In this document: positions 1-52,416 of the stretch, in pieces
Position numbering within the stretch: position 1 is the first letter of the stretch
Layout: every line of letters begins with the position of its first letter
NCBI GenBank assembly: GCA_043228905.1
Contig: JBHGNT010000013.1
Coordinates: forward strand, 20,894,001 to 20,958,000
DNA length: 64,000 nucleotides
From: Azolla caroliniana
Taxonomy: Eukaryota > Plantae > Polypodiophyta
Direction of reading: 5' to 3'
Program-made: the position numbers and the translations under genes
Notes under the pieces: model-generated
Database searches by the model: none
Told to the model about the DNA's origin: nothing
The model's input: the letters and a program-made list of their open reading frames with translations, nothing else

Positions 1-449
1 GTTGTGGCTCCTTGGTAATTCAAGCCGATTTCAACAACACCCGATGCACCTACCGGGTACACACTACCGCCACGCAACTCAAGTACCTCGAGCCTGATGT
101 TTTTGACACCCTTTCTCGGCTAGGCCTCAAGTTCTTCCTTGAGATTGGCCCTTGGGGTGTACTCCCCGAGCTGGCCAACTGGTTCCTCGTAGGATACAAC
201 CCTGATCCTGGCCATGTTCGCATGCACGCCTTCGCGGATGCTACCCCTATTGAGTTCCAGTTCAACGTCGCCGATGTTTGCACTACACTCCACTTGCCAG
301 TGGATGGCAGTCCCTTCCGCACCACAAAGTCCCCTGACGTCGTCCCCAACATCATCCCCGTCGTCCACACCGAGTATTCCGGACACGAAGGTTGGCGTTT
401 CACCGAAATTCCTCCTCACCTCCACGATCGTTGTAACGCCATCTCTTAG
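1..449 (+). CDS. 5'-incomplete duplicate of the PMD-like accessory ORF
   Basis: Translation identical to the corresponding part of 51736-52236. Confidence 0.45.
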   Translation, partial: CGSLVIQADFNNTRCTYRVHTTATQLKYLEPDVFDTLSRLGLKFFLEIGPWGVLPELANWFLVGYNPDPGHVRMHAFADATPIEFQFNVADVCTTLHLPVDGSPFRTTKSPDVVPNIIPVVHTEYSGHEGWRFTEIPPHLHDRCNAIS

Positions 450-629
450 ATCGGTGACACTGCCTCCACTGACGCCATCGCCTGCCTCACCGGTGAGTTC
501 CTCAAGTGGGCACACGATCCTCAACCGGTTCAGTGGGCAGTGGGCCCATGAACTCGTTCGACGGGACAAGGAATGACAAACATGACCCACAATGCACCCA
601 GGGGTGTGCACTCATTAGGTTGGGGGGGA

Positions 630-1178
630 TGTTAAGCGCTTGGATTGCACCGCCACCAGTCATGAAGAAGAGCGCATCAACAAGGACGTAGTATGGCTAA
701 AGGACCTATGAAGGGAAAATGGCAAGAGAAAAAGGTGCTAAGGAACATCCAAGTGTGAAAGGTTCATACCCTAAATGTAAATGCTATATAAACCACATGG
801 TGGTGGCTTTGTAAGGGTTCTTCCATTTGTAAAGATCTCCCTATTGATTAAGAGCTAGAGCTTCCTCTCCTCCTTCTTGTAACCTTTAAGCTTAAGAGGG
901 ATTAGTGAGGTGTTTAGTTAGAAAACACTAATCTCTTTTCCTTGTTGGTGCTAGACCTCTTAGCAAAGAGGGTTAATAAACATATTCATTACTTTTATTG
1001 TCTATGAGAGCGAGCTTGAGAGAGTGAGAGAGATATCGTGTTTAATCATCTATTAATCGTGGCTCGGAGGTGTCTGACAACCATCTTCGCCTGATTCGCC
1101 ATCAAATGGGTATACACTAGTCTGAGCCCCGCAAACGACATCGAGGAGTTAACTCCGTCGATACATAAATCCTACACA
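630..1178 (+). mobile_element. LTR of an Athila/OTA-like gypsy element, with PPT upstream and tRNA-Asp-type PBS downstream
   Basis: PPT GGGGGGGA (622-629), then TGTTAAG; TATATAAA near 785; ends CCTACACA (1178). TGGCACCACTGCCGGGGA at 1185-1202 is a 15/18 match to the Athila-type PBS TGGCGCCGTTGCCGGGGA. Confidence 0.75.
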
Positions 1179-6466: not shown

Positions 6467-6596
6467 CTAACTGTTTCTCTCTCTCTAACGCACTAGTTGC
6501 ATTCCCTTTTTTCTGTCTATGCTGCCATCAATCCACTGTTATCTTTTATCTACTTACGATCTGCCAAGAGAGGAGTGTTCATCTCGTTCCGCATCA

Positions 6597-7153
6597 GATG
6601 AAGACGCTTGCAACAGACACTCAACAACAAATAGATGCACATGAATCTGAGTCGGAAGATGGGTTGGTAGAAGAAACGGATTCTGAATCTGTTGTTGAAG
6701 AAAGAAGATATCCACGAAGAAAAAGGAAGACCTCCTCTTGGTATCCAGGCAGTCAATATATTCTCTTGACTTATGAAGGGGAACCAAAATGCTATGAAGA
6801 GGTCATGACTGATATACATAAGGAGAAATGGTATAATGCCATGCAAGAGGAAATGTATTCCTTGCACGAGAACCACACATATGAGCTTATGCAGCAACCT
6901 GGAGGTAAGAAGGCACTTAGAAATAAATGGGTCTACAAATTAAAGACTGGAGAAGACGGAAGTACACCCAAGTATAAGGCCCGCATTGTCGTGAAGGTTT
7001 CCAACAAAAAAAGGGTGTTGATTTTGATGAGATTTTTGCTCCATTTGTCAAGATGACTTCCATCCGAACTGTTTTGAGTATGGCGGCTAGTATAAATTTG
7101 GAACTTGAACAGTTGGATGTTAAAACAACATTCTTGCACGGTGAGTTGGAAAA
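6597..7153 (+). pseudogene. Ty1/copia element C fragment (INT-RT linker and RT N-terminus)
   Basis: EPKCYEEVM, WYNAMQEEM, NKWVYKLK, KYKARIVVK, then a frameshift to EQLDVKTTFLHGELE. Confidence 0.9.
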
Positions 7154-7727
7154 TGAATGCGATACATTGTATTGAATTGTGGTGAAAAATCTGGTTTTTT
7201 TATCAACTCAAGCTCGTTTTTTTTATTTTTATTTATTTTTAAATCCGAGAAAAAAAACTTTGAACATGAATTTGATACATTGTATGGATTTCTGATGAAA
7301 ACCCTGTTTTTCACATCAACTTGATACAATGTATGGAGTTCATGTTTAGAAATCTTCTTCTTTTTCAAATTAAAGAGGTTTAAGGTTTACATGAACTCGA
7401 ATTGTACTAAAATCTCTGTTTTTACAAGAGAAAAAGATGCATATCGATACTGCAAAGAAGTATGTTCACAACAAGACACGTTACAATGAACACGTGCTTC
7501 ATTGATTTAACAAAAAACTATTAATAATTGTGTTGATGGTAATTGAACCTTGGAAATGGCATTTACGTGGTTTATAAAATATTTTGGTGGTTCTTAATCA
7601 CCACTTAAGCACTTAATGTTGATCTTCATAGTTTGGTTCATCTACAACAAAGAAACATTTATGTGGAACTAAGGATGACAACACGAGCATAACTTAGGTG
7701 ACAAGGAAACTTGCAAGAACTCAACGT

Positions 7728-10700
7728 TGTCATGCCTTTCGGCTCCGGATCGTTGCGTGAGTCGGGTGGGAACCGCTGGGGTTTTGGACTAGGAAGAGGA
7801 AGAATTTGAGACGATTCTAATTATGAATAGGTTATTAGAAACTTGTGAATCCCACAAGTATAATGTATTTTATTGATTAATATTTAAGTAAGAATAAGTA
7901 TTTAGATTGATAGAGAAAGATATAGAAATCTCGTGAATCCCACAAGTATAGTTTATTAATTGGTGTTTTAGGAAATATATCCAATTTCCCAATATATTTC
8001 ACACTTATTACATTGTGCACCCCATCCTTATATGGCGATGAGAGAGTCTTCACAATCCATGCTTTTTTTTCTAACTATAGACTCCCCATGCTTTTCCTAT
8101 AGATAGACTATATGCTTTATCTAAAGTGATCATGCTTTTTCTATTTTGTGCGTTTTTTATCGACTATAGCATTCATGCATGCTAGATGTGCATGCGTAGC
8201 TTTTTCTTTTAGCATGCATTTTTCTTTTAACTAAATTTTATCCTACATGAACTTACCTTTCTATGTGGGACATTTACTTTTTAATAGTAATGAAATGTAA
8301 GTGTAATGGTAGGGTTTCACATTATTAACATGGAGCTGCAAGGTTCGAATCTTGCCCTATGCACGTATTATTTATTTTGACATTTTCTTTCATATTTACT
8401 AAAACGTTACTTTATAAGTTTTTCATGTAGTGTACGAAATACACTACGACACTCGCCCCCTCCGAACCCGCACATCCTCCGGTATGTGCCGAAGTTGTCG
8501 GTGATTGTTAGTCTCGTCCGTGCATTCTCTACCCGGTTTGTTTCGTCGCCGGTCGTGTTTGGTTGCCGGCCCTGTTTGGTCGCCGGTTTTTGGTTGCCGG
8601 ATCCGCCCGGTTTTCGGTTCTGTTCAGTTGCTAGCTCTGTCCGGTCTCCGGTTACCGACCCTCGTAATTCTTCGTTACTTGTTGTACCCTCCGTTTCTCT
8701 CGCTATGTCAGCTTTGTCTCTCCATTTTGAGCATATCCATTCTTTCCACCCGAACCATTGTCGCCATCAGATCCACCATAGTCTTCGTTCACTGTTTGCA
8801 TGGCCATGGTCGTTTGTCGCAGCTCCTCGTGCTCCTCTTGAGCATAACCTTTCATGTCTTGTGCATTTTCCATGCTTCCCACTTTGTTCACTTTTATCGT
8901 GTAATCTTGCGTTAGAGTTGACAATCTTCATGTTAGAACCCTCCTCATTTGTTGAGATCTCATCCTTGGTAACACCCTTTAAATCCGCTTGGCTCGCTTG
9001 GCCCTCAACATCCGTGGTAGTGTCTTTTCTTGGCCTCTTTGTTGTAATCGTCGACCTCAATCTTTTTGACCCCTGGTTTAGTTGGATTAGCTTCTTTCTG
9101 ATTCGGTCTCGTCCGATCCGCTTTTAGTTGGATCGTATTAGCTTCTTTCCGATTCGGTCTCGTCTGATCGGCATTTGGATAGATTGGCTTTTGATCGGAT
9201 TTGTATTCGGCCGAATCGGACTCGGTTGATCGGTTTGGACCGAGTCGGCCCCCTTCCGGGTCGGTTTCGATCTATCGGTTTCGGTTTTGGTTGGCTTTCT
9301 TTTCCTCGTTTTCATCGGGCTCGACCGGTTCATCATCCGATTAAGTCAGATTAGCTTCTTTCCGAATCGGTATTGTCCGATCGTCTTTCGGCTAGGTCAG
9401 CTTCCATCCATATTCGCATTCGGCTGAATCGGACTCGGTCGATCGGTTTTGACCGAGTCGGCTCCCTTCCGGGTCGGTTTTTGTTTAGATCGGAATTTCA
9501 TCCGGATCATCTTCCATCCGAACCGGCTTTCGACTTTACCTTTCTTGCCGCCATCTCCGGTCTCTCCGGTCTCACGTTGGTTCTCGGACGCAACCGCTGA
9601 AATCTCTAGGATTAGTGCACATGAACCCTCGGTATTATCATCCTTTGTCATTTCAACCATAGCCACCTTCTCAGCTATCTCTCCGTCGTATGAATCGGCT
9701 TTGACCTTTGTTCTCTCTCCACCACCTTCCGTCTCTTCGGTCTCACGTTGCCTTTTGAACGCAACCGCTGGAGTCTCTGGAATCAGTGGTGGGGAAGTTT
9801 CGATATGGCCATCTGCCATTGATTCGTCCATGAAGACATGGTCGTTTGTCTGCAGACTACCATCCTTCATCGACCATGTCTTTGACAAGATTCTCATTTT
9901 CCTCTCATCATGTCTTCGACATACCCTTTGGACTTCGGCCCAATCTTCGGTAAGACCATTCGCACCGTCATCGTCTTCGAGCTAGATCCCGATGTCCATC
10001 CTTTCTTTTCAATCGATTGATTTTACAAACATTAGGACTTTATCCTCTCCCACCAATCTTTGTTCCCGCTTCGAGAGTCGAGCAAAACGATGCTCGAACT
10101 CTAGGAATACTTGTGTTGCACTCCGGTAGGTCTTCTCCGATGCCACCCATTCGTCGAATTCTCGATGATCTTGTCCCTTTGATCTCTTGAAATCATATGC
10201 CTCTTGTAAAGCTTCTTCAAAGGACTCCCATGTTGGGTTTTGTTGCGGCCCTATTTTGTGGATTCTCTCTTGTAACTCATCTGTGACTACTCGATTGAAG
10301 GATGTCACTTGCAATCCTTCTGGTATCCCACATTGCATCATCTCGGCCTTGTATTCGCATAGATAGCGTGACACATCCTTTCCATCGAATTCCCCGTTTC
10401 TTTGCACAAGCCGCGCTACTACCGATTTCATCTCCGACATTGTGCGTTGCTCTTCTTGCATCCGCTTAATCATCATCATCATCATCATATTCATCGCTTC
10501 TTGTTGATTCTCCATCTCCTTACCACCCCTCTTCACGTCGGGTTCACCACTTGCGTCGTGCCTTTTGGCTCCGGATCGTTGCGTGAGTCGGGTGGGAACC
10601 GTTGAGGTTTTGGACTAGGAAGAGGAAGAATTTGAGACGATTCTAATTATGAATAGATTATTAGAAATTTGTGAATCCCACAAGTATAATGTATTTTATT

Positions 10701-11285
10701 GATTAATATTTATGTAAGAATATATATTTAGATTGATAGAGAAAGATATAGAAATCTCGTGAATCCCACGAGTATAGTTTATTAATTGGTGTTTTAGGAA
10801 ATATATCCAATTTCCCAAATATTTCATACACTTATTACATTGTGCTCCCCATCCTTATATGGTGATGAGAGAGTCTTCACAATCCATGCTTTTTTTTTCT
10901 AACTATAGACTCCATGCTTTTCCTATAGATAGACTATATGCTTTATCTAAAGTGATCATGATTTTTCTATCTTGTGCATTTTCTATCGACTATAGCGTTC
11001 ATGCACGCTAGATGTACATGTGTAGCTTTTTCTTTTAGCATGCGTTTTTCTTTTAACTAAAGTTTATCCTACATGAACTTAGGTTTCTATGTGGGACATC
11101 TATTTTTTAATAATAATGAAATGCTAGTGTAATGGTAGGGTTTCACATTATTAACATGGAGGTGTAAGGTTCGAATCTTGCCCTATGCATTTATTATTTA
11201 TTTTGACATTTTCTTCTATTTCTTCATATTTACTAAAAAGTTACTTTATAAGTTTTTCATGTAGTGTACAAAATACACTACGACA
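7728..11285 (-). mobile_element. Non-autonomous LTR retrotransposon (3.56 kb) with gag-like ORF, tRNA-Trp PBS and 4-bp TSD
   Basis: Direct LTRs 7728-8451 and 10554-11285 (TGTC...GACA). TSD ACGT at 7724-7727 and 11286-11289. PBS complement TTCACGTCGGGTTCACCA at 10532-10549. PPT complement CTCGCCCCCTCC at 8452-8463. No RT or integrase motif. Confidence 0.9.
10009..10536 (-). CDS. Retrotransposon Gag-like N-terminal ORF (175 aa)
   Basis: Starts at the PBS. Short coiled coil, then FDGKDVSRYLCEY...PTWESFEEALQEAY, a gypsy capsid-like pattern. Confidence 0.7.
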   Translation of the reverse strand: MKRGGKEMENQQEAMNMMMMMMIKRMQEEQRTMSEMKSVVARLVQRNGEFDGKDVSRYLCEYKAEMMQCGIPEGLQVTSFNRVVTDELQERIHKIGPQQNPTWESFEEALQEAYDFKRSKGQDHREFDEWVASEKTYRSATQVFLEFEHRFARLSKREQRLVGEDKVLMFVKSID

Positions 11286-11289
11286 ACGT

Positions 11290-12350
11290 GGGGATATTAA
11301 TAGCTACACATGTAGATGGCCATGACCTAGGGCACCAATTCTGCATTGGTAAAGTTTTGGACATGGTGATGCATTAAGTCTTTGTAATACATCTATCATT
11401 GACATTAGTGAGGTGGATATTATTGTGTATGACTTTACACTGACAAAAATTGGATGTTTAAGGACGACAACGATAGACATAATAAAAGAGATATTACCAA
11501 GTCTAGAAGATATTTCAGATTGAAGGCGAACAAGATTTAGTGCACACAATTTGGCGACACCATTTGGTGAAGACAATGATTTAATTGGTACATTTGAAAA
11601 TGAGGAGGAAGAGTCACGATTGTATATTAGCTATAGTAGGGATTCTCATGAAAGGAATGATGATAGTGATGCAAATAACTCCTAAATGTATTTTTTGTGC
11701 AACGATATGCAACAAATTTAGACAACATTTTATCAAATGAAATAGAAAAGTTGATTGTTTTGAAATCTTTCTCTTATGATATCGTTAGTATTTAAAATAC
11801 TACTAGTTGTAATTTGTCCTTAAAAATACACAAAGTTACTTTTCGTATTTGGCCAAAATTTGACATTTTTCAATTTTCCAATTGGTGAAAATTTTAGCTT
11901 TTTCATCAAGTTTTCGAGAAATTGTGATACTAGTGTCAAGGTGTTTAGTAAAATGGCCAAAAAAGCCCCAAAATCAGATGGAATATTCCTTATCCTTCCA
12001 TTTGTGCGCAATCCTTCCACTTGTGAACGTGAACATGTTTTTTGCTTTATTACTCAGAAGTTTGTGTTATTACATGTTAGTTATTATGGTGAATAGGTAA
12101 TTTATGGGAATACTCAAAATTTTGAACTTTGGTTTCTAACGTAGTTTTGATTTGTTTTCCTTTCATATTCAATTTACATACGAGACAACCATATGAAACC
12201 ATGTGCACAAAACTATGGTTCCAAGCCCATGGTTTTGTGCATGTCACAAAGAAAAACTATGTGCATAGAAACGATGGCTCCAAACCCATGATTTTTTGCA
12301 TGGACAAACCTATAAAAACCCTAATACAGCTTGTGTAAAAGGGGGGGTCA
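11290..12350. other. Unclassified AT-rich relic, possibly a DNA-transposon 3' end; continues 7160-7727, which was split by the Trp-primed element
   Basis: Contiguity follows from the ACGT TSD. Decayed acidic ORF tail at 11570-11680 and inverted repeats GCACAAAACTATGG/CCATGGTTTTGTGC at 12205-12240. No diagnostic motif recognised. Confidence 0.3.
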
Positions 12351-15081
12351 ATTTGGAGATCATCATCATCATCATCAATAATATATTATTCCTCTTGACA
12401 TCTATCTTCTTCTCGAGTATAAAAATCTTTGTTCTTTTCAAATGTGATATTAGTTTCCTCGACTCGTACATACACATCATCGTCTTCTCAACAAGTTCGC
12501 GAATGTCCTCCCTGGTCTGTGGCGTCGGTGGTCCCGCTCGCACAAAGCACGCACGCACCTACATTTTCACAACAACGGAAGCCGATGATGTTTCCCGAGC
12601 TAGCAGGCTTCACATATTTGGGCCTTCCGGCCACTAAATTTTGGCAGTTCGAACACAACTTGTTTTGACTGCAAGTCCTGAAGCCTTTGATAATGTACCT
12701 GGTTGATCCGCTTATGCCACAGGTCGATATCCGACTCGACCTTCTGATCTTTTCTGAACAAAGCGGCGCCGACATCATTGCTGTCGAGGGTAAACATCCT
12801 CCTGTCTCGGCGCCCTTGCGCGATGATCTGGCTTTCTTCCTCGATGAAGCACCCAAGGTGCGTAAACCGTACATGCATCCCTTGGGCGACAATCTATCCG
12901 ATCGACACTAGATTCTTCGTGATTGTCGAAACATGTAAAACATTCATCAACTTTCCCTTTTGATCGACATGACTCAAAGGGACCTCTCCGACATGCTCGA
13001 TCGGGTGAGGAGTGTCATCTCCGGTTGTTTCGGTTCCTCCAAATATGAGAACCACTCTTCGTGGCTTGTCATATGGTTAGATGCTCCGGAGTCAACATAC
13101 CACACTTCCTCCGATGTGGAAGTGGTCATCTTCATCGAGTTCGTCTTATGTTTGATTACGAAGGCTGCCCTTTTCTGGTCTTTCTAGATCCTGATTTGTT
13201 TGAATCAGTGCGCTTCTTCCAACACTCGCTCTCTCGGTGTCCTTTCTTGCCACAATACCAACATTTTGTTTTGGTTTCCGATGCCGCCTTGACTCCCCCT
13301 ACTCGTGGAGGGTCTCGCACTACTCTCGGCACTACTCTCGGCACTATCTCCATGCCTTTGATTCTACTCTTGTTGGCCGCCGCTATTGCGTGCTGAACCA
13401 CCTCGTCCTCCACGCCCATGGGTCGATCTGTCTCTGTGTACATCCGACTATCCAATTGAGTGGTCTTGGACCCACTCACGTGGTTTTCTTCAACCATCAA
13501 CATTGATTGCTAGTCAATGAAGGATGGTGGCTTCTCCCGGGTGCAAATCATTGTCTGGATAGGCTCGTACCTCTGCGCTAGACCACTGAGGCAGATCTAG
13601 ACCATCTCTTCTTCATCCACCGTTACATTGATGGAACCTAATGCGTCACAGATCTCCTTTATCTTAGTGGTATAATCCGTAACCGACATATCCCTTTGTC
13701 GGATGTTGTTGAGCTCTTGTCGGAGCTGCAACATATAGGCTGTGGTAGTGGCGGTGAAAATCGTTTTGGGATTTTCCCAGGCCTCCTTCGACGTTTTCAC
13801 ATCTCTGATGTAGCCAAGCATCTGGTCGTGCACACAGGACACGAGCCAGTATAGAAGTCTACTCGCTCCTTGATCCCATGACAAGAAGTCCTTGTGTGCC
13901 GACTCCAGCGCTACTTCATTCGCTCCTTCGAAATAGATCTAGTAACCGTGTCCGAGCAGGTACTGGTGCATCTTGTGAGACCAAGATGCATAGTTGCCTC
14001 TGTCGAGCTTCTACGTTTGAAGCGGGCTAGCCGTTCCTCTGTCCATCTTTCTTCAGGTTGTTCTTACCCGGAAGTTAGGTTTTCTTCTAGTTTTCTCAGG
14101 TATCGTGTCGGTAACAGAGGATTTTCAACCCTTGCACTTTGATACCATGTAAATATTAGCGTGTGGAATCTAACAAACACAACCGCCTCTGTCGGATAGC
14201 AAGAGAAAATGGAACTAAGGTTTAATGGAAACTTCACAGAACACAAAGAGAGTAGAACAACATAAAACTCTAATTTAAAAAATACTCCAAGAGTCTATAC
14301 ATATAAAGGACTGATAGAAGTACTGACAAGTAGTTCAGTGCTCGTATAGAGCATCAGACACTAACTCCTCGGATAACTACATAATAGTCTAGGAGTGTAG
14401 ACCTCCAATGGCCTACTGTTACCGATTAAGAACACTGTCTACGCTCAGTCCTTCGAGGTAGACCTCAAGGTGACCGTGTTAAAAGGAATAGAACCTTCGT
14501 ACCGTAAATCGTAATGGGATACTCCCTCGTATCCTAGTAGCGTATAAGGGAGACGTCTACAACTGAACTCTTTAGGAAGTGCGCTGGGATCCGCGCTTAC
14601 ACCTACACCCTTACGATTAACAGTACGCAACAGAGAAACCAAGAATGCAACAGAGAAAGCCACAGATATGCACAGATATCCGAGAAGATAGTAATTTATT
14701 AGAAAAACGCTCTATACTCCAAAATTACACACTACCTCTTACAGAGGATTTCTGCCCTTTATATACACAGGGTTTTTAGCCGTTCACGCTTCCCGCGTGA
14801 ACCATTACATTTGTTTGTTAACGCTTTACTACATTATAATATTTTTGCGCTTCTGTCCGTCGGTTACGATTCCATTGGACAACACCTGGCACGCCTGTGG
14901 GACAGTGCCATGGCACATCAGACCCATCCCTCTATTCTTCCTCCAAAATATCCCGGATGTTTGGCTCCGCTCCTACGTACTGGTTCGAGGACGATGCAGT
15001 GCCCGTAGGAGCGTCATTGCTCAGTTGCCTATCTTGTACTTCCTCGGTCGTCATGGGGGTTTCCATGGCGTAAACTTCTCC

Positions 15082-18020
15082 CTACGTGGGCGGACCCAGC
15101 TCTGTTGGCTCATTCCGTTCTACTATGGCTGGCTCTTCCGTCTGCGGGCTCTCGGTAGGTTGAGGCTCTGTCCTATCCGTAACTTCCTCAGTGTTGCCGA
15201 CCGTAATTGTTATCTCCAGTGAATTGGGCTGAGGTTCCTCCTGTTCAACGGTATCACTTTCTGGTATCACGATGGGCTCCGTTCTTAGTCGTGTGTTGCT
15301 TACCATAGTTGTCATCTCCGGAGAATTGGGTTGAGGTTCCTGTTGTTCTACGGTTTCACTTTCTGGTATCGTGATGGGCTCCGCTCTTTGCCGCATGCTG
15401 CTTGCTTCCATGATTCGGTGAAACATATCGTCCTGACTTTCGCTGAAATCGTCCAGAAGCTGCGCAAGTTCCTCGGAGTGTTGGTCCGCTAGCGTGCGAT
15501 AATCCTGTGTTTGTTCCTCGCGTACTGCCGCAATGCCTTCCTCATTGAGCTTGTAGAAACCTCGGCCTTCTTTTCTACGGTTTTCCCAGTCCGCCCAGTA
15601 GGTATGCAACTCGCCGCTTGTGTTGCCCACGCCATCCAGCCTTTGTCTACCGTTGCTTGTAATTGCGTCGTAAACCTCTCCCGATTTGTTTGAAGAAGTA
15701 TGCGCACGTTGTTCGTTATGACTTGGCAACGGTTGTGCGCTTCTTCCAGGGTTTTTTTGAGGTTTTCGATTTCATGCTTATTAACCACAACCGCTTCCTC
15801 ATAATGGTTCTTCATCCTTGCCCATATCTGGGATTCTTTCAAGTGTAATTCCTCCAGCTGGCCCATTTCATTGTTCAGGTGAACTTTGACCTGATGCCTC
15901 ACCTCCTGCTCTCATATGAGCTGCTTGTCGTACCACACTTTCTTCTTTTCCAATAACTCCTGGAGTCCTGTGATCGCGGCTTCCAACTTTTGGGCTTCCT
16001 CCTGTAGTTTGGTGTTTTCTTCTTTCATGCGGGTGTGCTTGCTACCTCCGCTTCGAGTGCCTTCATTGCCTTTCGGCCTTTGGCCCGTATGTCCTTTTCT
16101 TTGTCGGAGGATTGGCGGAGTTCGGAGCGGAGGCAGTCAATCTCGGACTTCGCAAGCTGTGTAGCCCTTTTTGCTTTAGCAGCGAAGGCCTGTTGTGCGG
16201 CTATCTCCTCTTGTAGGGTTATCGAGGGGTCCTCACCCGCTGTTGGTTCAGGATTTTGCGGTGCCCTAGTAACGCTCTGTTCGAGCTTTGTAAAGCGCTC
16301 TTGGCCCTTCTGTAATTGGGCTTGAGTCAACTTGGCTGTTTTCCACATGTTTTTATTCTTGCTAGCCATATCCTTGGCCCCCACACTCACTCTAGCCAAT
16401 TCCCAATGTACCTCAACCAGGGCCGCATTCAGTGGAGGTAGTTCAATGCCCATATGTCAAATCCCCACATTCTGTTGCCTGCCTACCTTGGCTAGAGACC
16501 CTTCATCCTCACTTTCCGTTGTTTGTGTGAGCGCACACTCAATCATCTGTTGTTTTGCGTGCTCCTTCGCCATTCTTTGTGATACCTTAATTTGCTGTGT
16601 TGCCAAAAATTCCATGAGTTTGTAAGTTGTTCCAAATTGTAGTAGTGCACTAAACTCATGGGTTGTATCCGGAATGTCCGGGTACTTTAGGACTTCGCTT
16701 TCCGCCGTGAGTACACATTTCCCACGCTGCGACTGGGCCGTAATGATCGGCCGTGGTTCCCGGATTATTTTGAAAGTGGTGTTGGGCTCTGTAGTTGCGT
16801 AACTGTCAACCAAGGCGGACGTGTCTGCCAAAAATTCCATGAGTTCGTAAGTTGTTCCAAATTGTAGTAGCGCACTGGACTCATGGACTGTATCCGGAAT
16901 GTCCAGGTACTTTAGGACTTCGCTTTCCGCCGTGAGTACACCTTTCCCACGCTGCGACTGGGCCGTAATGATCGTCCGTGGTTCCTGGATTATTTCGAAA
17001 GTGGTGTTGGGCTCCGTAGTTGCGTAACTGTCAACCAAGGTGGTCGTGTCTGCCAAAACATCCATGAGTTTGTAAGTTGTTCCAAATTGTAGTAGCGCAC
17101 TGAACTCATGGGCTGTATTCGGAATGTCCTGGTACTTTAGGACTTTGCTTTTCGCCGTGAGTACACCTGTCCCACGCTGCGACTGGGCCGTAATGATCGG
17201 CCGTGGTTCCCGGATTATTTCGAAAGTGGTGTTGGGCTCCGTAGTTGTGTAACTATCGACCAAGGCGGTCGTGTCTGTTTCTGCGGTTTTGTCTATGTCC
17301 GCGGTTGTGTCTTTGACTAGTCTGCACCCATATTTCTGGTCTAGCCTACGCCGTTTTGGCCTCGGGCTTTCTTGGCGTTGTTCGACTTCTTGGTCATGTG
17401 GAGCTTCCTCCTTGCTTGCCAACCGTTCTCCTTGTGTTGTTTGCGTGCGGGGCTGGGAAGATTGTGGTTTACCATCCCATTCTGTGGTAGCCAACTCCGC
17501 TAACCTCCGTTTCTCGGAATGTGGTGGTGGCGTGGGTTTGCTGGGCTGTGGTGCGGGCAGAACTCGGGGTGGAAATAGTATCGTCAGATACTGTTGTATG
17601 ATTGGCCTTAGCTTTTTGCCACCCTGATACACGTGCAGCCCTTCCTGTAAAGCTGGTCCCGTAATTACCCCCCAATCGACCACACGCCCTTCAAAGGTGT
17701 CAATGATAATGCCTGCCTTCAGCTTTGGCATCCCATAGGCATTTACGTGCAGGTGGCCTACCTCCAACAAGAACTTGGCTATTTCTCGAAAGAAGGGGTC
17801 GGGGATTTCCTTTGTCCTGTATGTTTTGGCGGACACCGAATATGCCCTGAAATATCCCTATAGGGTTTCCGCAGGAGGGATGTCGAAATGTTTCTCCCCA
17901 ATCGATGATAAGTCAAGCTTCTTCTGGATGGTAGTGTTGGTGACTGTGCCTATGTTGAGCTTCCTGGCAATTTCAAGGGTTTAGGGTGAGCAAGTGCCTC
18001 GGTGACTTTGATTTATCCAT
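15082..18020 (-). pseudogene. Extra 3' ORF of the gypsy element (broken, roughly 950-1000 codons; repeat-rich then coiled-coil)
   Basis: Near-contiguous same-strand ORFs 16457-17836, 16025-16453, 15489-15902 and 15082-15729 lie between integrase and the 3' LTR. E/Q/K/A-rich helical composition. Confidence 0.7.
16601..17277 (-). repeat. 225-bp (75-aa) in-frame tandem repeat, 3 copies
   Basis: CAAGG...GTGTCTG recurs at 16811, 17036, 17261. Protein repeat LVDSYxTTEPNTTF...LLQFGTTY occurs three times. Confidence 0.95.
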
Positions 18021-18415
18021 CCAGTCTCTTTTTGAGAAGCCATATGCGCAAGGCGGCGGAAATAGTGATCGGCATCGTAGGTGGAGGAGATTCGTGGTTA
18101 GTGGATGATGTTTGCTGGCTATGGCGGGCGCGGGCTCTGTGGTAGGATGGGGAGTTGGGTGAGTGAGGAGAGCGACGAAAGAGAGGAGGGTTAAGGACTG
18201 AAGAATATTTTCTGCACCGTGCAGAAAACTTTTGCTTTCCTCTTTTTGTGGCCTAGGGTTCATTGGCCTGTGTGCCATCGTGGTGCCGCGTGTTCTTTCT
18301 CTAGTAGTTTGTGCATGCATCCAGTCCTTTTAATAACGTCACTATCTTCTTCTTCTTTTTCTAACAGTTAAATACAATATTACTGTTACACTATAATATA
18401 GGTGGGTCCCTTTAA

Positions 18416-21400
18416 TTAATCTGCGGATTCTTCGGCCGTGTTGTTTACAGCGTGGAACGGGTTTGGTGGCACCGGTCCCTGGTAAGGTTTTAGTCGAAAC
18501 CCATTCACCTTTTGTCGTAACACTTCCCCGGCCAGGGTGCCTAGTTGAAACGTGTCATTTTCCGCGCTAACGATCCAGTACGGCCCCGTCCAGCGGAATC
18601 TTAATTTGCCTGGCATTTGCCCCATCCATGTTTGAAAGACTAGGACCGCTTTGCCGACCACAAAATCTTTTTCACGTGCATTTCAATGCCGGTCCACGAA
18701 TGCTTTACGCCGACACTACTCTTGTTCCAATATGGCCATGCTTCGTAATCGTGTCTCGCCTAGTTCGAGCAGCTGTTGTAGCCATATTTGTTCGGATTTG
18801 TCTTCTAATAGCCAGTCTCGTACCTGAATCCACAGACTGGGTACTTGAAATTCGATTGGCATTACGGCCTCCAACCCAAATGCTAGCCGGAAAGGCGTGG
18901 ATTGTATGCTAGTCTTATAGTTGGTTTGGTACGCCCATAACACGCTGTGTAATTTGGTATGCCGGTCTGTTTTGTTCTCATTGATGATCTTTTTTAGTAT
19001 CGTTTGTAACGTTTTGTTCATGGACTCCGCTAAACCATTCGCCTGTGGATAATATGACGTGCTCTTCTTGTGGACAACGGCATAGTGTTGTGTCAGCTCC
19101 CGGATGGCCGAATTCAGAAAGTGGCTTGCTTGGTCACTAATGAGCTCAATAGGGCAGCCAAAACGACACCAGATATGTTCGTAAAGAAATTTCTCCGTCA
19201 CTGCCGCGAAATTTTCTCGTAGTGCCTTCGCTTCCACCCACTTAGTGCAATAATTAGTACCCACAAGTATATATTTATTGCTAGTCCGAGCTGCCGCTGG
19301 TGTAAATGGCCCCACGAAATTGAGTCCCCATTTCCCCATTTCTGGAATGGATCCAATGGCAACACTGGTTGATGTGGCATCATTGCGACCTCTGTGGGCT
19401 GGCCTATCCGTTGACACAGGGTGCATTGTTTGCAATATTCATACGCATCCTTTTGCGTAGTCGCCCACCATAGGCTGGCATGCCAGACTTTACGAGCCAT
19501 AACATCGCCCGTGTAGTGTCCTCCTGCTGTACCACAGTGCGCTTCGCGTAAAACCGCTTCCTTCTCATCTGGGCGTATTCGGTGTCGCCAGATTCCTTCG
19601 CTGCCTTTGTGATACAGGACCCCTTCGACCAAACAAAAGTTACGACTTTGGACGGCCAATCGTTTCTTTTCGTCCGTTCTTAATTGTGGCGGTGGTAATC
19701 CAGTGGTAAGAAAGAATGTCATCTCCATTAACCAACGATCGGGAAAAGTTTTTTCTGTACATGTCACTATAGTTGTGATCTACATGATGTCTGCATCCGA
19801 AAAGTCGTCGTCCTCCTTTCGCACCATTTCTCCATTATCTATCTTGCTTAAGAAATCCGCTATAGTGTGTTGCGTACCCGGTCGATATTGTATAACAAAG
19901 TCGAACTCCTGGAGCAACAACATCCATCTAGCCAATTTTCGTGTTAGCGCTTGCTTCCCCACGAGGTATAGCAACGCCGTATGGTCCACGTGAAACGTAA
20001 ATTTCCGCCCCAGTAGATAATGTCGGAATTGATTGATGTTGTATATCGTCCCCAATGCTTCTTGTTCCGTTGTGGAGTAGTTACGCTCCACCTTTGATAG
20101 CTTCCTACTGGCATAATATACTGGTCTGTACCAAGTCAGCTCTATGAGTTGCATCAACACACTACCTTTTGTTATGTCTGAGGCGTCTACAAAAACGTGA
20201 AATGGTTTCCCCCAATCTGGTGATTGGTGCTTGAGTCAACATTATTTTAAGCGCATCGTATGCCTTTTCTTTAGTTGTCGTCCAGTTGAAAGGTGTACGG
20301 TGGACGGCGACATGTAATGGCGTGGTGAAATCCGCTAGATATTGTAACATCCGACTATGCCAATGTATTTGTCCTAGAAAATGACTGAGTGCTTTGTCCA
20401 ATACGCTGTCGGTGAAAGGTAAGGGGAACGCATTTGTAATAGTTACGGCGTTCAATTTCTAATAGTCTACGCAAACGCGGATTTTTCCATTTTTCTTCGG
20501 AACTACGACTATCGGGCTCAGCCACGTAGCTTGCTTGACTGGTCGAATGAATCTAGCCTTGAGAAGTTTGTCAATTTCTTCTTTTACACGAGTTGCGTAG
20601 TTCAGATTCATTCAGTATCGATGCTGCTGAATAGGTTTCACGTCGATAGCTAAATTGATCTTATGCTGGTAGAATTTTGGATCTAATCCCTTCATGTCTT
20701 CGTGGGACCACACGAACACATCTTTATATTCCTTGAGCAAAGCTAACATCGCCTCTTTCTGATCTAGTAGTATGTCTTTCGCGATGGAGAGTAATCGGGG
20801 ATTCGCTGTCGTTCCTACATTAACTTCTTCCAATGCTAAGGCAGTGACTCGTCGTGAAATTTCCATTTCTTTCTCGAATGCGACCCGTGCTCGGTTTAAT
20901 TCCAGTATCGACTCTGGGTCCGGTTCATAAGCCTCTTTGTGAAGTGTAGTGGGAGTAGCGTACTCCGCCACAGTTTCTATTACGTCAATTTCGAATAGTG
21001 GGATGATTTGCGGGTGCTCATCCAGGTACGCTTCTACCTCTGTATCGTCCACTCCTTCCAGCATATTTATGTCTTCTGTGTACAATGGTGTCATTCCTTT
21101 CGGATGCCCCGTCATTTCTTCTATGGGTACGCGAACTTTACTGCGTCCTCGTCGGAAACTGATACAATTATGTTGCCAGCTATGTTTGATGTTCGCCGAA
21201 TGAAGCCAAGGTCTGCCAAGTAGTATTGGGTATGCTCCGGAGAGTCGAGTGTGAGTACTACTGCCGAGATGTCAAAGTGGTGACCGCCAATGACGATGCA
21301 TAGTTTCCGGATTAACCCTAAGGGCCTAACAGATCGGGTATCCATCATGCGAAGCCGAAAGGGGCAAGCTTCCCATTCTGAAATTCCTAACTGTTTACAC

Positions 21401-23060
21401 GTCTTTGCACTAATCACATTAACACCCGAGCCCCCATCGATTATACAGCCTGTTATTTCCTTCCCGTGTAATACTAGCTTAATGGCTAGATTGTGGTGAT
21501 CCACCACCGTTGGTCCGGGGCTAATTTTGGCAAAATTTACTGAGACATTTATACCAGGCCTACCTACCTATTATGCAATATTCGACGACTTGCCGGAATC
21601 GTGGAACTTGTTGAAGGAGTTTTTCCATAGTTATGGTTATTTCGTAGCCTGCTAGTGCTTGCCATATGGGGTCCAACGGCCCAACATTGGTTGCGGACTC
21701 CTGCCGCATACGCGTCGTATTTGCCGCGTTCGCTTTTTCTACCCATGCTTGGGCCGCTTTGCGTACCTCATCTTGTGCAGCCCAGTCAACATTCTTTGTT
21801 TGTTGTCATGTTGTAACCTATTGAACTTCCGATGTAATCGTATTTACAGCTGGTCCTTTGCCCTTGCGCAATGGACGTTGAGTTGCGTAGTGTCTAGGCT
21901 CTTGCCAGGCAAAACAATGGACGTTGGACTCTCCTTTCTCTGGAGCTGGTGGCAGATTCCTATCCCCAATGTCGTTGGCTCCTCCTGGTCTTGTTGCATT
22001 CTCCAGGAATTCCGGGCTATTTGCGGTTGGTTCCTGCGTGACTCTTGGCGTAGGTCATCCTCCGAACTTTGGTCATAATGCCATTGGTCCCTATACTGTC
22101 GATGCTTTCCTTGTGAGTGCGGCCCATTGAATCCACCACGCCTATTCATCGACAGTGGTTGTCGTAACGATGCCCTCCTTTATTATACTGGTGGTTGCCC
22201 CAATATTCTTCGTCCTTCGGCTCCTCTTCGTCGGAATCGTTGCTATTCTGGCGATTGCGGTAGTTCTGGTCATCGCGTGGATTTCGATCAGTATATCAGG
22301 TTTGTTCCTCTTGGCGCCTTGGATCATTTCGGCGAGGTGGTCGCTGTGGTTCTACGCATCGTACTGTGGGCATAGGTCTGTTCAACATATTGTACTCACA
22401 TTGCTCGACCGTGTGTGCCTTTGAGTGACAAATTGGGCGGTGAATTCGCATATTGCATTCTACAACGGAGTGCCTGGAATTGAGGCAAATCGTGCACTGA
22501 ATAGCATGACAAAAGTGGCGTTCCTCGTCTTGAGGCAATGTCTGTCGTAATGAGGACAAAGAAAATCCTTCCTCCTCTTCGTCCAACTCAAGCTATAGTA
22601 CTCGCTCGATGACCATGTCGGTTGTTTCCCCTTTCACACTACGTGTGTTGAGCGTCGTCTTGATAGGACGTCGTAGGGCTACCACAGACGTCTCCCTGGC
22701 CTCGTCATCTGTCGAGGCCCGTTCTAATTTTTGCCATAGATTTTGGAAGCATAAACTAAAGTCTGCGACCGATTCTGCTGGTAGCTGCTTGATCATGTAG
22801 AACTGCCCGATGATTTTGCGTTGAGGTACCCTCCGATGAAAAAATCGTAGAAATGCTGACAACAACTGGTTGAAGGTGTGGATCGCTGGTAGATCCATCT
22901 GTGAATGCCAAAACACGGCTCTACCATCCAGAGTTAAACCAAACTCTGTCATTTTTTACTAGTCCGCTTCCTCTTCTCGAAATCGCTGCTCCATGTGATT
23001 CGCGTTCCTAAAGTTCAGGAATAGCCGGATGTGGCTTGCACTGTCTGTTTCGCCATTAAA
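18416..23060 (-). pseudogene. Degenerate gag-pol of the gypsy element (RT core deleted near 20398)
   Basis: EFGLTLDGRAVFW gag; CTICLNSRHSVVEC knuckle; IIDGGSGVNVIS protease; FPLPFTDSVLD fused directly to ALSHFLGQ; YYASRKL...NYSTTE RNase H; HCGTAGGHY...CKQCTLC, KWGLNFVGP, YYPQANGLAE and RWTGPY integrase. Confidence 0.93.
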
Positions 23061-23866
23061 GCATGGTTAGGAGAAGGACATTCTGGATGCGATGGTGGGC
23101 AGGGAAAGATCACAGTACTCGTGTGGTGATAGAACTTCTTGCTTGACGTCGCGATGTTGGGTGAGCGGGGAGTCGACTTTGTGGTTCGGACAGATATTAC
23201 TGAGGTGAGGTTTTTGCCTTGCGCACTCCTCTGTCTGGCGTGTGATGGACCTCGTGAGTGGTTGGACTTGTCGGGTCGTTTCTCTGGGTCGCCTATGGCT
23301 AGACATCCATCCCTTGTTGTTCATCTGTGAGAAATCACAGATCACCAGGCGTGCCAAACGTGTTACTGATTAGGAACATTGTCTACGTTCAGTCCTTCGA
23401 GGTAGACCTCAAGGTGACCATGTTACAAGAAATAGAACCTTCGTACCATAAATCGTAATGGGATACTCCCTTGTATCCAAGTAGCGGATAAGGGAGACGA
23501 CTACAACCGAACTCCTTAGGAAGCGCCTACACCCTTACGATTAACAGTACGCAAAAGAGAAACCAAGAACGCAATCGAGAAAGCCACGAGAAAATAGTAT
23601 TCTATTAGAAAAAATCTCTATACTCCAAAATTGCACGCTACCTCTTACAGAGGGTTTTTAGCCGTTCACGCTAACCGTGTGAACCATTACATTTGTTTCT
23701 TAACGCTTTACTACATTATAATATTTCTGCGCTTCTGTCCGTCGGTTACGATTCCGGTGGACAACACCTACCGGTTCCCACTTGGGTCTGGCTCTTGGTT
23801 CCGCATATCGATCCAACTTTGGCTTATTCATCCGATCCTGATCTGGTTGAGCTTGTCCGCTCAACA

Positions 23867-26800: not shown

Positions 26801-28684
26801 TATGAGCAACACAAGATGGGGGATGATTAACTCTAAATTAAATTAGCAGTATCATCATCAAATACAAAAATACCTACAATGAGGTATATATCGATCTCAT
26901 GTGCAAGGGTGCACATATGTGAGGATATTATAGGTACAAAAGTGTAAGTCCTAGGATATCCCACTTAAGTACAAGGTGCTAGTTAAGGCGTTATAGTCAA
27001 CACTTCTAAGTAGATTCTATCTAGGTAACTATGAAGTTACATGGTTGACTAACTAACTAAACTAAGTTGAGCATGATCTCTCAACATTAAGTTTAAGAAA
27101 CTTCAAAGTAGTGTATATGATTCACTTCCTTGCAGATGTACTTAAAAAATCATGTCTACGTTAAGTATAGAATTCCAAATGGAATATGTGGATGTGACAT
27201 GCATTGGAGGTTTGGCTATGATAGCCATTGGGGAGATAGAAGAACAATTTCTGCATCATGTTATGATGGATCTCAATGGTTTTGAGAAGGATAGCAATAA
27301 TTATCCAGTTATTCGGAATATGGTCGAGAAAAAGTAGTTTTACGAGATGCCACAAAAGGTAATATGTATAAAAGCATCCTCATTGATAGAAGTATTGATG
27401 GCGAGGACTTAATTGAAGCCATACGATTCCAAACTTTGTTTTCTAAGCCAGTAATAGAGACAATAAAAAAGATGCTTCAAGATCCGGTGACTCTTTCAAC
27501 ATTGAAAATGGAAAATGTTATCACCAATGAACATGTCTACCAGATATACAAGCATTTTACTAGCACGAAAAACTATGGGTCTTAATGATTTGAAAACACT
27601 TGGAAATGTTTACGGCATTAAAAAAATGATAGATGGGAAAGAAGTTTTTGCCATAATTGATAATGATAAATTGTATGATTAATATGCAATTTTCAAAAGG
27701 CAAGCTACCACGTAATGGCTTCAAAGAGATTTCTTAGATGTTTGGGGTATGATAAATTGTAAAGATGTGTGGAAAGAAAAGCTACCCGAGCTTCTAAAGC
27801 TTTCATTGATAGGGCTAATTCAATGTTCTTCTATGGAAGCATGTGAGAGAGGCTTTAGTCGCCTAAATCTAATAAAAAATAAGTTCAGAAATAGCCTAAA
27901 AAGCGATATGGTTGATGCATTAATACGATTCTCTATTGAAGGACTTGAACTAGAAGAACATGACTTCAATGCCAACATTTAGTTGTGGTGAGAGAGCAAG
28001 GCATATCGTCATATTTTTACAGGAACTTCTCATGAAATAGAAGATGACTTCGAGGACTTCATAGAAGATATAGGTTGAAATTTTGTAGATTTGATCAATT
28101 TTGTTTTGAAACTTTATATATATTAGGTTTAATTTTATCTAATATGTTGTTAATGCTAGTTTACAAAGTTTTGAAATGTGAATTTTGTTTACAATGTTAC
28201 TAAAGGTTTTTGGTAAATATATATATTTAGTTTTTGGGATCCGAAATTTTGTGATTGATTTGATTTGGTGTTGTGCAGTATGTGCTAAATGTTTTTTATC
28301 AACATGTTCTGGTTGACATTGTCGCTAGTAGGAACGTGGCTAGTTGAAATTTTAAAATTCCAGTTAGGTTGATAAGAAGCATGAAAATTTCCAGTAGGGG
28401 CTAGAGACTTTGCCCAACACTGGTTGTGACCTTGTATTGAATTATACATGTCCTTGACGATTGTTGTAGATCCTACATTGCTCTTCAAGGCATTCCTAGG
28501 TATATATAGTTAGCATCAAATCTTGATAAATTTTGATCTCGTGTTATGATTATATGTCATTGGTAACAATTGACAACAATTCCGTTCGGTTCAAGAGTGT
28601 AAAACTCAAACCGTTTAAGAAATTTGAAACTTAAATTGAATTGAACTGAATCATGAAAGAATTTAAACTGAATTTAAACTGAAC
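23867..28684 (+). mobile_element. hAT DNA transposon relic (C-terminal part of transposase plus 3' region), interrupted by copia E
   Basis: LPELLKLSLIGLIQCSSMEACERGFSRLNLIKNKFRNSL (27749-27982) is the hAT dimerisation motif. HFLADVL-like stretch at ~27123. Homologous to 39323-40500. Confidence 0.85.
23961..27086 (-). mobile_element. Ty1/copia element E, internally deleted (gag and integrase only)
   Basis: TSD TTAAG at 23956-23960 and 27087-27091. LTRs 23961-24396 and 26690-27086. PPT complement CGCCCCCTT at 24397. Degenerate Met PBS at ~26679-26689. HLDVWGP, RSDGGKEY and PQQNGVAERKNR. Confidence 0.95.
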
Positions 28685-30832
28685 CACGACGTAGGCTATG
28701 ATATGAGCTAATAAAATCTAAGATTTAAAATTCAAGCCAAAAGACATGAAGGAAAATGTAAAGTTGTGGTAGAAGTCATGCAGGGCCAAGCAAGAGTGCT
28801 GGCATAAATAAAAAAGGTCATGGCATCCTTATATGATATCGTATTTCAGAGTTCATACAGTTAAATCGAAGCCAACTATGTAGGATATGATATGAGCTAA
28901 TAAAATCTAAGCTTTGAAATTCAAACCAAGAGACATGAAGGAAAATGTAAGGTTCTGGTAGAAGTCATGCAGGGGAAAACAAGAGCGCGCACATGAATCA
29001 AAAAGGTAATGGCGTCCTCAAAGGATATCGGATTTCCAAGTTCAAATAGTTGACTCGAAGCCCACGACATAGGATATATGATATGAGCTAATAAAATCTA
29101 AGTTTTGAAATTCAAGGCAAGAGACATGAAGGAAAATGTAAAGTTGTGGTAGAAGTCATGCAGGGACAAACAAGAGCGCCCACATGAATCAAAAAGGTCA
29201 TGGTGCCCTCATATGATATTGGATTTCCGAGTTAAAATAGTTAAATCGAAGCCAACGACGTAGGCTATGATTTCAACTAACAAAATCATAGCTTTGAAAT
29301 TCAAATCAAGCGACATGAAGGAAAATGTAAAGTTGTGGAAGAAGTCATGCAGGGGCAAGCAAGAGCGCCCACATGAATCAAAAAGGTCATGACATCCTCA
29401 TATGATATCGTATTTGAGAGTTCAAATAGTTGAATCGAAGCCAACTATGTAGGATATGATATGAGCTAATATAATCTAAGCTTTGAAATGTAGGCCAAGA
29501 GACATGAAGGAAAATGTAAAGTTGTGGTAGAAGTCAAGTAGGGGAAAACAAGAGCGCCCACACGAATCAAAAAGGTAATGGCGTCCTCATATGTTATCTG
29601 ATTTCCGAGTTCAAATAGTTGAATCGAAGACAATGACATAGGCAGGCCATGATATGAGCTAATAAAATTGAAGCTTTGAAACTCAAGACAAAAGACATGA
29701 AGGAAAATGTAAAGTTGTGTTAGAAGTCAATACGGGGCAAACACGAGTGCCCACATGAATCAAAAAAGTCATGGAGTCCTCATATGATATCGGATTTCCG
29801 AGTTCATATAGTTGAATCAAAGCCAACGACATAGGCTATCATATCAGCTAATAAAATCTATGTTTTGAAATATACGCCAAGAGACATGAAGGAATATGTA
29901 AAGTTGTGGTCGAATACATGGAGGGGCAAGCAAGAGTGCCGACATTAATAAAAAAGGTCAGGGCGTCCTCATACGATATCATATTTCCGAGTTCAAATAG
30001 TTGAATCAAAGCCAACAACGTAGGCTCTAATATCAGCTAATGAAATCTAAGCTTAGAAATTCAAGCCAAGAGAGATGAAGGAAACTGTAAAGTTGTGGTA
30101 GAAGTCAATCAGGGGCAATCACGAGCGCCCACATGAATCAGAAAGGTCATGGCATACTCATAATATAGGATTTCAGAGTTCAAACAATGACTCGAAGCCA
30201 ACGCTCTAGGCTATGATATGAGCTTATAAAATCTAAGCTTTGAAATTCAAGCCAAGAGACATGAAGGAAAATGTAAAGTTGTGGTAGAAGTCATGCAGGG
30301 GTAAAACAAGAGCGCCCACATGAATAAAAAAAGGTAATGGCGTCCTCATATGATATCAGAGTTCCGAGTTCAAATTGTTGAATCGAAGCCAATGATGTTG
30401 GCTATGATATTAGCTAATAGAATCGAAGATTTGAAATTCAAGACAACAGACATGAAGGAAAATGTAAAGTTGTGGTAGAAGTCAATCAGGGGCGAACACG
30501 AGCCACCACATGAATCAAAAAGGTCTTGGCGTAATCATATGATATCGGATTACATAGTTCAAATAGTTAAATCGAAGCCAACGAGGTAGGCTATGATATC
30601 AGCTAATAAAATCTATGTTTTTAAATATAGGCCAAAAGAAAGGAATGAAAATGTAAAGTTCTCATAGAAGACATGGAGGGGTAAGCAAGAGCGCTGACGT
30701 AAATAAAAAAGGTCATGGCATCCTTATATGATATCGGATTTCTGAGTTCAAATAGTTGACTTGAAGCCAATGACGTAGGTTATCATATGAGCTAATAAAA
30801 TCTAAGCTTTGAAATTCAAGCCAAGATACATG
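28685..30832. repeat. Satellite array, ~189-bp monomer, ~11 diverged copies
   Basis: GACATGAAGGAAAATGTAAAGTTGTGG anchors at 28743, 28932, 29123, 29312, 29501, 29694, 29883, 30072, 30258, 30449, ~30638, ~30827. Confidence 0.97.
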
Positions 30833-52236: not shown

Positions 52237-52416
52237 ATCGGTGACACTGCCTCCACTGACGCCATCGCCTGCCTCACCGGTGAGTTCCTCAAGTGGGCAC
52301 ACGATCCTCAACCGGTTCAGTGGGCAGTGGGCCCATGAACTCGTTCGACGGGACAAGGAATGACAAACATGACCCACAATGCACCCAGGGGTGTGCACTC
52401 ATTAGGTTGGGGGGGA

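Follow-up and report, generated by a model that had tools for sequence, protein, structure and literature searches.

How does a retrotransposon flanked by long terminal repeats (LTRs) begin its plus strand when no polypurine tract (PPT) lies beside its 3′ LTR? This question is raised by a Ty3/Gypsy element in a 64,000-nt stretch of Azolla caroliniana DNA (contig JBHGNT010000013.1); this whole stretch is the window, and positions refer to it. To our knowledge, the documented variation in primers is limited to the minus strand, which may be started by a whole tRNA, a half tRNA or the element itself. The reviews of retroviruses and LTR retrotransposons consulted here present plus-strand priming from the PPT without exception (PMC5371799, PMC13191261). 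The PPT position of the Azolla element is occupied by a match to the 3′ part of tRNA-Arg(UCU). We consider it rather likely that the element is a broken copy from a plant clade of non-chromovirus Ty3/Gypsy elements without a PPT, in which a second host tRNA, annealed to the minus-strand cDNA, would prime the plus strand.

The coordinates of the element are given in Table 1. Both LTRs run from TG to CA and the target-site duplication (TSD) CCTAC is present on both sides, as the original prediction had stated. Three lines of evidence, the strand of gag-pol, the position of a TATA-like motif and a tRNA captured in the related contig L001, all agree with the predicted minus polarity, and led us to reject the reverse one, in which the 17-mer beside the left LTR would be the true primer-binding site (PBS). 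Of the 14 LTRs examined, 13 carry on their gag-pol strand a TATA-like motif at 105-145 nt from the U3 end, and therefore the minus polarity holds. The motif TATATAAAG, cited in the original prediction as a mark of LTR polarity, is confined to the 3′ (left) LTR; those 24 nt have been lost from the right LTR.

We compared the two internal ends of the element with the complete tRNA-Arg(TCT) of L001 as the reference. The 3′ site begins with 17 nt that are complementary, on the minus-cDNA strand, to positions 76-59 of tRNA-Arg(UCU), with one tRNA base bulged and one G-T wobble. The tRNA-like copy that had been predicted thus stands at 14887-14903, but its extent had been underestimated, as the match resumes at 14918-14927 past a 14-nt insert. 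Identity in this second part is 7/10 in the window copy and 8-10/10 in most relatives. The PBS, running from 23356 to 23343 on the minus strand and 4 nt away from the 5′ LTR, matches the same tRNA over 14 nt, and the suggested tRNA-Arg(UCU)-type resemblance of both ends is hence supported. The 3′ site and the true PBS have a common layout of match, hairpin and T-loop match. The 11-nt inverted repeat between them is exact, as reported originally, and would arise by chance with a probability of about 6e-6 when 36 registers are allowed; the 9-mer TGGCACGCC occurs only twice in the 64 kb, both strands considered, once in the PBS and once in the 3′ site. The predicted duplex with the tRNA has a free energy of -41 to -53 kcal/mol at the 3′ site against -35 to -38 kcal/mol at the PBS, RNA parameters being used as a proxy.

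No PPT was found beside the 3′ LTR, in line with the original prediction. Purines make up 9 of the 15 nt adjoining the 3′ LTR in the window copy, 8-10 in all 40 sequences of the family set, and 9 in a distant relative, L242 (L057 was too short and was left out of this count; a bacterial look-alike, L082, was kept out of the family set). A 15-nt segment with 13 purines lies within 60 nt of the LTR in 2 of the 40 sequences, and within 120 nt in 15 of them. The purine-rich tract near the LTR, which had been named as a possible start for plus strands, does not qualify as a PPT as far as sequence can test: it encodes the ILEEE-stop end of an extra open reading frame (ORF) downstream of pol, its distance from the LTR varies from about 38 to 105 nt by family, and it is absent in 25/40 sequences. 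Two further LTR elements in the window have G-rich tracts directly abutting their 3′ LTRs, indicating that PPTs are recognisable in this host. The ends of a third LTR-like pair, 31509/36767, are poorly delimited, and this pair was excluded from the PPT controls.

The original prediction expected family members to keep the tRNA-like site. We scanned metagenomes with a pattern consisting of the LTR end and the first 9 nt of the 3′ site, and obtained at least 121 loci. Among them, 40, all from one accession series of plant-like contigs, are related elements; the remaining 81 listed loci looked like chance matches, having no blastn match to the element. Viral contigs gave no relatives: none of their 120 pattern loci had a tblastn match, and further scans were empty. 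The site lies 2 nt from the LTR in 40/40 related contigs, a spacing set by the pattern, while the 8 further site bases outside the pattern carry at most 2 mismatches in 39 of the 40. In 11 loci the 17-mer is 88-100% identical to that of the window, against 49-69% for the LTR and internal flanks. In all 18 loci with a protein match, the strand and side of the extra ORF or the integrase agree with those in the window, which places the site at the 3′ end in these loci too. Four loci also display a 5′ junction, with the PBS present in each; these probably arise from assembly collapse of the LTR. One contig (L011, 1351-1444 in the oriented sequence) has the LTR start directly after extra-ORF sequence, without a PBS, as in a nested insertion or a deletion derivative.

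In contig layouts from four public runs of two coded organisms, the summed contig depth peaks on 14881-14907 in 4/4 runs, about tenfold over the flanks 40 nt away, and 14877-14916 shows no variant among the variant rows listed. In run X1 the peak reaches 173,000, compared with 83 for the single exact-match contig; this depth is not a copy number. The site is kept in 40/40 related contigs, in these layouts and in L242; hence, the expectation was confirmed and a one-off rearrangement was rejected.

How the site is kept was analysed in an alignment of 35 distinct rows. The insert between the two tRNA-matching parts is 13-14 nt long across the family, and its hairpin covaries among the relatives: two pairs are standard in 35/35 rows with 7 and 15 double changes, and the covariation score was reached by 0 of 500 shuffles, the rows being related to each other. 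A T-stem could also be formed from the tRNA-matching parts, but it has 1 compensatory cell, its ends fray and its positions 11-12 are fixed. These data indicate that the insert is kept as a structure and the tRNA-matching parts as a sequence. Two substitutions are widespread, A>G opposite tRNA position 55 (28/41 sequences) and C>T opposite position 67 (4/41). Both give wobbles only with the cDNA strand as the partner of the tRNA, which argues that this strand is the pairing strand; the one-sided changes in the alignment of 35 rows are also G-T in the cDNA-strand orientation (8/8). A tRNA-like RNA fold of three 3′ sites scored no better than shuffles (z about 0 to +0.65), and the 3′ site of the window did not fold better than shuffles as DNA either.

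The nature of the tRNA was indicated by L001, where positions 1190-1265 hold a complete, CCA-ended tRNA-Arg(TCT) of 76 nt (ARAGORN; 71 bits in Rfam, where it was the sole match). It is joined to the 3′ internal region where a minus-strand primer would lie, and in the orientation of one; next to it come an A, which is the first spacer base in families of the L010 type, and then the contig end. Eukaryotic tRNA genes normally do not encode CCA. We therefore take the sequence as a probable captured primer, produced by read-through; less probably, it is a genomic tRNA gene whose trailer happens to read CCA. Copying of the tRNA through to its 5′ end is a known product of an unmodified primer (PMC13191261). 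We also observed tRNA-Arg(UCU)-like sequences at very high summed depth when L001 1180-1266 was compared with runs X1, X7 and X8; some of the matching contigs consist of repeated tRNA-Arg(UCU)-like copies with joints going back 47-77 nt, and in one X4 contig the tRNA end runs on into spacer-plus-LTR-like sequence.

The layout of the PBS (13-14 nt, a hairpin of 6-8 bp and GAAC) recurs in the 5/5 near-group junctions, namely, the window, L010, L045, L055 and L059. In the window and L055 both ends have T at position 10, whereas in L010, L045 and L059 both have C; the agreement between the ends probably reflects a single event. As the PBSs of Ty1 and Ty3 are not rewritten from the tRNA (PMC5371799), the shared T is no proof of a tRNA variant. 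In another contig (L119, 51-160) we found a near-whole tRNA-Arg-derived copy in the sense orientation, which spans the D-arm through CCA and is interrupted by insertions in both the anticodon loop and the T-loop. This copy at the 3′ site, D-arm included, suggests that the 3′ site arose from a captured tRNA.

The distant relative L242 came from a protein-based scan whose query contained no site motif. It is a complete element with 1.65-kb LTRs, 53% identical to the intact relative P0009 and without an evident TSD. It sits in a prokaryotic bin with a GC-rich left part, and so is probably contaminating plant DNA. Its 5′ PBS is an 18-mer different from that of the window family, presumably of the tRNA-Arg(ACG)/Ogre type; scans for 3′ ends of plant tRNA-Arg gave no match. 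There is no PPT at its 3′ end (best segment 10/15 purines within 150 nt); on the opposite strand, 2 nt from the LTR, we found a 15-nt Arg(UCU)-type match (13/15 identical to the complement of the L001 tRNA), followed by an 8-bp hairpin and a partial T-arm match. The two ends of L242 match different tRNA ends and share about 5 complementary bases; hence, they need not pair with each other. In our reading of its sequence, this single element gives the strongest evidence against end pairing. Its pol stays open through the region homologous to the extra ORF of the window (2444 codons, L242 12130-19000), and, with no stop between them, the extra ORF may be fused to pol in L242. Two other contigs, L243 and L244, are distant Gypsy relatives.

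We propose that a deep Gypsy clade of seed-free plants dropped the PPT and that both cDNA strands would be primed by host tRNAs, in some members by two different ones, with the second site derived from a captured copy of tRNA-Arg; on the present sequences this seems the likelier course of events. Replication would begin in the standard way with tRNA-Arg at the 5′ PBS priming the minus strand, for which the whole CCA-ended tRNA of L001 gives support. After the first strand transfer, reverse transcriptase (RT) would copy U3 and the 3′ site, and RNase H would clear the RNA, again as in the standard scheme. The freed cDNA would then pair with a second tRNA over 17 plus about 10 nt, the hairpin looping out where m1A58 is unable to pair. 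The CCA end of this tRNA would lie 2 nt outside U3, and from there it could start the plus strand and set the LTR end as a PPT does. Two nucleotides outside U3 is the usual overhang removed by integrase. By retroviral rules, the tRNA primer, which on DNA forms an RNA/DNA hybrid, would then be taken off by RNase H, and the dinucleotide would be trimmed by integrase.

Several observations weigh against this proposal. The 40 contigs belong to one accession series, and the pattern used to select them includes the first 9 nt of the site; this bias is absent or smaller only in L242 and the contig layouts. If second primers were to escape removal, a continuous tRNA match of 18 nt might be left outside an LTR, and such a match was seen in 0/40 contigs. 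A check for covariation with the host tRNA gave no position-67 variant among those listed, and copies with A-U pairs in the acceptor stem are hinted at only by low-agreement loose ends. As the copies are related, the wobble argument draws on few independent events. Moreover, G>A changes, which are sporadic (5 sites at one position), go in the opposite direction, although they fit decay of methyl-C. Finally, from sequence alone a tRNA primer would look the same as an RNA primer of identical sequence.

That last point leads to an alternative that we regard as possible but rather unlikely, in which the element's own tRNA-like RNA, ending in CCA, survives on the cDNA to serve as a non-purine PPT, RNase H cutting it 2 nt before U3 with the specificity by which it normally takes off tRNA primers. 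A second tRNA would then be unnecessary, the geometry is PPT-like, the GC-rich stretch would form a stable hybrid, and L119 does hold a near-whole tRNA-derived copy in sense at the 3′ site; the Ty3 RNase H is also described as choosing its PPT by local structure and fit (PMC5371799). However, this explains neither the 27 nt of tRNA identity up to the T-loop nor the hairpin placed exactly between positions 59 and 58, and the common substitutions, which are wobbles on the cDNA side, would break the mimic on the RNA side. The mimic in L242 moreover differs from the tRNA end matched by its own PBS, and the 3′-site region as RNA folds no better than shuffles. The original prediction had offered two mechanisms, priming by a second tRNA, which we favour, and pairing or self-priming of the RNA ends, which L242 disfavours. 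In the latter case the 3′ stretch would pair with the 5′ PBS of the same or a partner RNA, as in circularisation, dimerisation or self-priming of the Tf1 type, and a different, unseen route would start the plus strand. The exact 11-nt repeat, the agreement of position 10 at the two ends, which is probably a single event, and a predicted duplex of -24 to -29 kcal/mol between the 3′ stretch and the PBS are what this account has in its favour; but we find it improbable, given that the ends of L242 are not complementary beyond about 5 nt, that the tRNA match of 27 nt is far longer than the 11-nt PBS match, that L001 has a whole mature tRNA at the PBS position, and that the missing PPT is left unexplained.

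The polarity of the pairing strand would be the same if the tRNA bound an antisense RNA that traverses the LTR, reaches the 3′ site and serves as template for the plus-strand copy of the LTR, and the wobble and hairpin evidence fits such an RNA equally well. It would have to begin at the far LTR end, however, and TATA-like motifs are positionally conserved on the gag-pol strand only (13/14), so we give this possibility little weight. Very improbable, in our opinion, is a start at an ordinary purine tract further inside, with the tRNA-like site being a relic or having another role, such as a small-RNA target. The window copy does have 14 purines in 15 nt at 42 nt from the LTR, and 13/15 segments within 120 nt exist in 15/40 sequences, but the tract is the Glu-Glu-Glu-stop end of the extra ORF, with the variable distance and the absences described above, and in L242 no segment within 150 nt exceeds 10/15 purines. 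To fix the LTR end, a primer has to lie directly against U3, and a relic would not keep 88-100% identity while its flanks drop to 49-69%. Snap-back priming by the 3′ end of the minus strand itself was rejected, as it would yield inverted rather than direct LTRs.

Priming by a second tRNA was also compared with known systems. Like Ty3 (PMC5371799) and HIV-1 (PMC13191261), the element has direct TG..CA LTRs, a 5-bp TSD, a PBS by the 5′ LTR and the order GAG-PR-RT-RH-INT (PR, protease; RH, RNase H; INT, integrase). Those two have purine-rich element RNA, the PPT, where here a tRNA match of opposite polarity abuts U3 instead. The layout of acceptor-end and T-arm matches with a loop between them resembles the bipartite PBSs of Ty1 and Ty3 (PMC5371799) and of Drosophila Gypsy (PMC1635307), as well as the primer activation signal of HIV-1 (PMC13191261), and in Ty3 and Drosophila Gypsy a tRNA site lies near the RNA 3′ end as well (PMC5371799, PMC1635307). 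Those bipartite sites, however, belong to the genomic RNA strand, function in minus-strand priming or RNA bridging, and occur alongside a PPT, whereas the second site here lies on the opposite strand, would bind the CCA end itself and points into U3. The nearest known case is the second PBS of Drosophila Gypsy, which is on the RNA strand, matches another part of the tRNA, is accompanied by a PPT and is dispensable for cDNA synthesis (PMC1635307). A complement of the PBS encoded by the element is also known from Tf1/Sushi, Tcn1 and TAR, but in those elements the RNA 5′ end acts as the self-primer of the minus strand in place of a tRNA (PMC6317226), while the present element has a tRNA PBS and carries the complement at the PPT position. 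The literature searched, which left most subscription papers outside its coverage, gave no account of tRNA-primed plus strands or of this arrangement. Judged from the sequences, the arrangement appears to be a real departure from the PBS-plus-PPT rule, conserved and clade-wide.

To place the element, we built an IQ-TREE phylogeny of the RT-RNase H region from 54 rows, none of which is a verified Athila reference. The RNase H piece of the window and L242 fall into one clade of 12 rows (support 100/99), with L242 on its first branch. This clade is nested among Riccia and environmental, bryophyte-type proteins and is sister to unnamed angiosperm and pine proteins without an additional, archaeal-type RNase H (aRH) domain (90/89); the 6 aRH-bearing proteins form a separate clade (100/100). 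The nearest named matches are from a fern for the integrase and, by identity, from liverworts for RT-RNase H, which makes a seed-free plant the likely host. The element has the domain order of Ty3/Gypsy, direct TG..CA LTRs with a TSD, and a tRNA PBS after the 5′ LTR. No chromodomain match was found in P0009, P0005, P0013, the L242 pol or the window pieces, and without a chromodomain after the integrase the element does not belong to the chromoviruses. For aRH, there was no RVT_3 or RNase_H match in four intact relatives.

By the lineage table of Neumann et al. 2019 (PMC6317226), the element fits no named lineage fully. It shares with Athila the 5-bp TSD, the lack of aRH and of a chromodomain, and a forward extra ORF after pol, but the PBS there is of the Asp/Asn/Ala type as opposed to tRNA-Arg(UCU) here. 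A tRNA-Arg PBS is dominant in TatIII and Ogre of the Tat lineages (TatIII, Ogre, Retand), which also lack a chromodomain; Tat has aRH, whereas the present element has none and falls outside the Tat clade in the RT-RNase H tree. Phygy (4-bp TSD NCGN, tRNA-Trp PBS) and Selgy (4-bp TSD, tRNA-Ala PBS), both without an extra ORF, differ from the 5-bp TSD, Arg PBS and 3-kb extra ORF region seen here.

Table 1. Features of the Gypsy element in the window, in order of position
Feature	Positions	Strand	Basis
TSD CCTAC, left	14412..14416	.	sequence
3′ LTR, 468 bp, TG..CA; TATA-like motif 120 nt in, on the gag-pol strand	14417..14884	-	
2-nt spacer from the tRNA site to U3; predicted first two plus-strand bases (putative role)	14885..14886	-	
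3′ tRNA site part 1, TGGCACGCCTGTGGGAC, 17 nt, at the PPT position, 2 nt from the 3′ LTR	14887..14903	+	
Inserted hairpin, 4-bp stem, 14 nt, between tRNA positions 59 and 58	14904..14917	+	
3′ tRNA site part 2, complementary to the T-loop and the 5′ strand of the T-stem (tRNA positions 58-49)	14918..14927	+	
Purine-rich tract encoding the Glu-Glu-Glu-stop end of the extra ORF; distance from the LTR, 42 nt	14927..14944	-	
Extra ORF region downstream of pol; stops and frameshifts; tandem repeats	14933..17857	-	ORFs, Pfam, Atlas
gag-protease-RT-RNase H-integrase, broken	18416..23081	-	Pfam; tblastn with P0009
8-bp hairpin followed by GAAC (complement of tRNA positions 53-56), just downstream of the PBS	23319..23342	-	
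5′ PBS, TGGCACGCCTGGTG, complementary over 14 nt, with one G-U wobble, to the 3′ end of tRNA-Arg(UCU)	23343..23356	-	
5′ LTR, 406 bp, TG..CA; without the 24 nt bearing the TATA motif	23361..23766	-	
TSD CCTAC, right	23767..23771	.	sequence

The two LTRs of the window copy differ at 33 of 406 aligned columns (Kimura two-parameter distance, 0.086) and by three indels; blocks of 20, 18 and 24 nt are absent from the right LTR, the 24-nt block being the one with the TATA motif. On the minus strand, Pfam searches of the window pieces and tblastn with P0009 identified, in the Gypsy order, parts of Gag, protease, RT, RNase H and integrase. Compared with P0009, RT residues 1074-1216 (about 143 codons of the core) are absent, and there are many stops and frameshifts; therefore, this copy is non-autonomous. 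In the extra ORF we observed in-frame tandem repeats (3 x 225 nt at 16601-17275 and 2 x 102 nt at 15191-15394). The ORF gave no confident Pfam or Atlas match, and the repeats no family match.

The Gypsy element is seemingly inserted in the 5′ LTR of a minus-strand Copia element (13600-14416 and from 23772), for which 14140-14147 is what we take to be the complement of a tRNA-Met-type PBS. The window also has a 12.2-kb block that is repeated at 1-12213 and 51788-64000 with 99.7% identity, 51.8 kb apart, and is either a recent segmental duplication or an assembly artefact. A 1.9-kb element with inverted repeats of about 450 bp at its ends occurs at 4572-6467 and 56359-58256, with arrays of about 54-nt units near it, and a tandem array with a period of about 189 bp occupies 28684-30832.

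If priming by a second tRNA is true, a successful, high-copy clade without a PPT would show that the plus-strand primer, too, can be swapped. These elements would then offer a natural RT/RNase H able to start synthesis from a DNA-bound tRNA, as well as a direct test of what fixes the U3 end. Filters that demand a PPT would miss such elements, and orientation by the PBS would call them backwards, because the 3′ site looks like the better PBS. Both ends of the element would also be potential targets for 3′ tRNA fragments.

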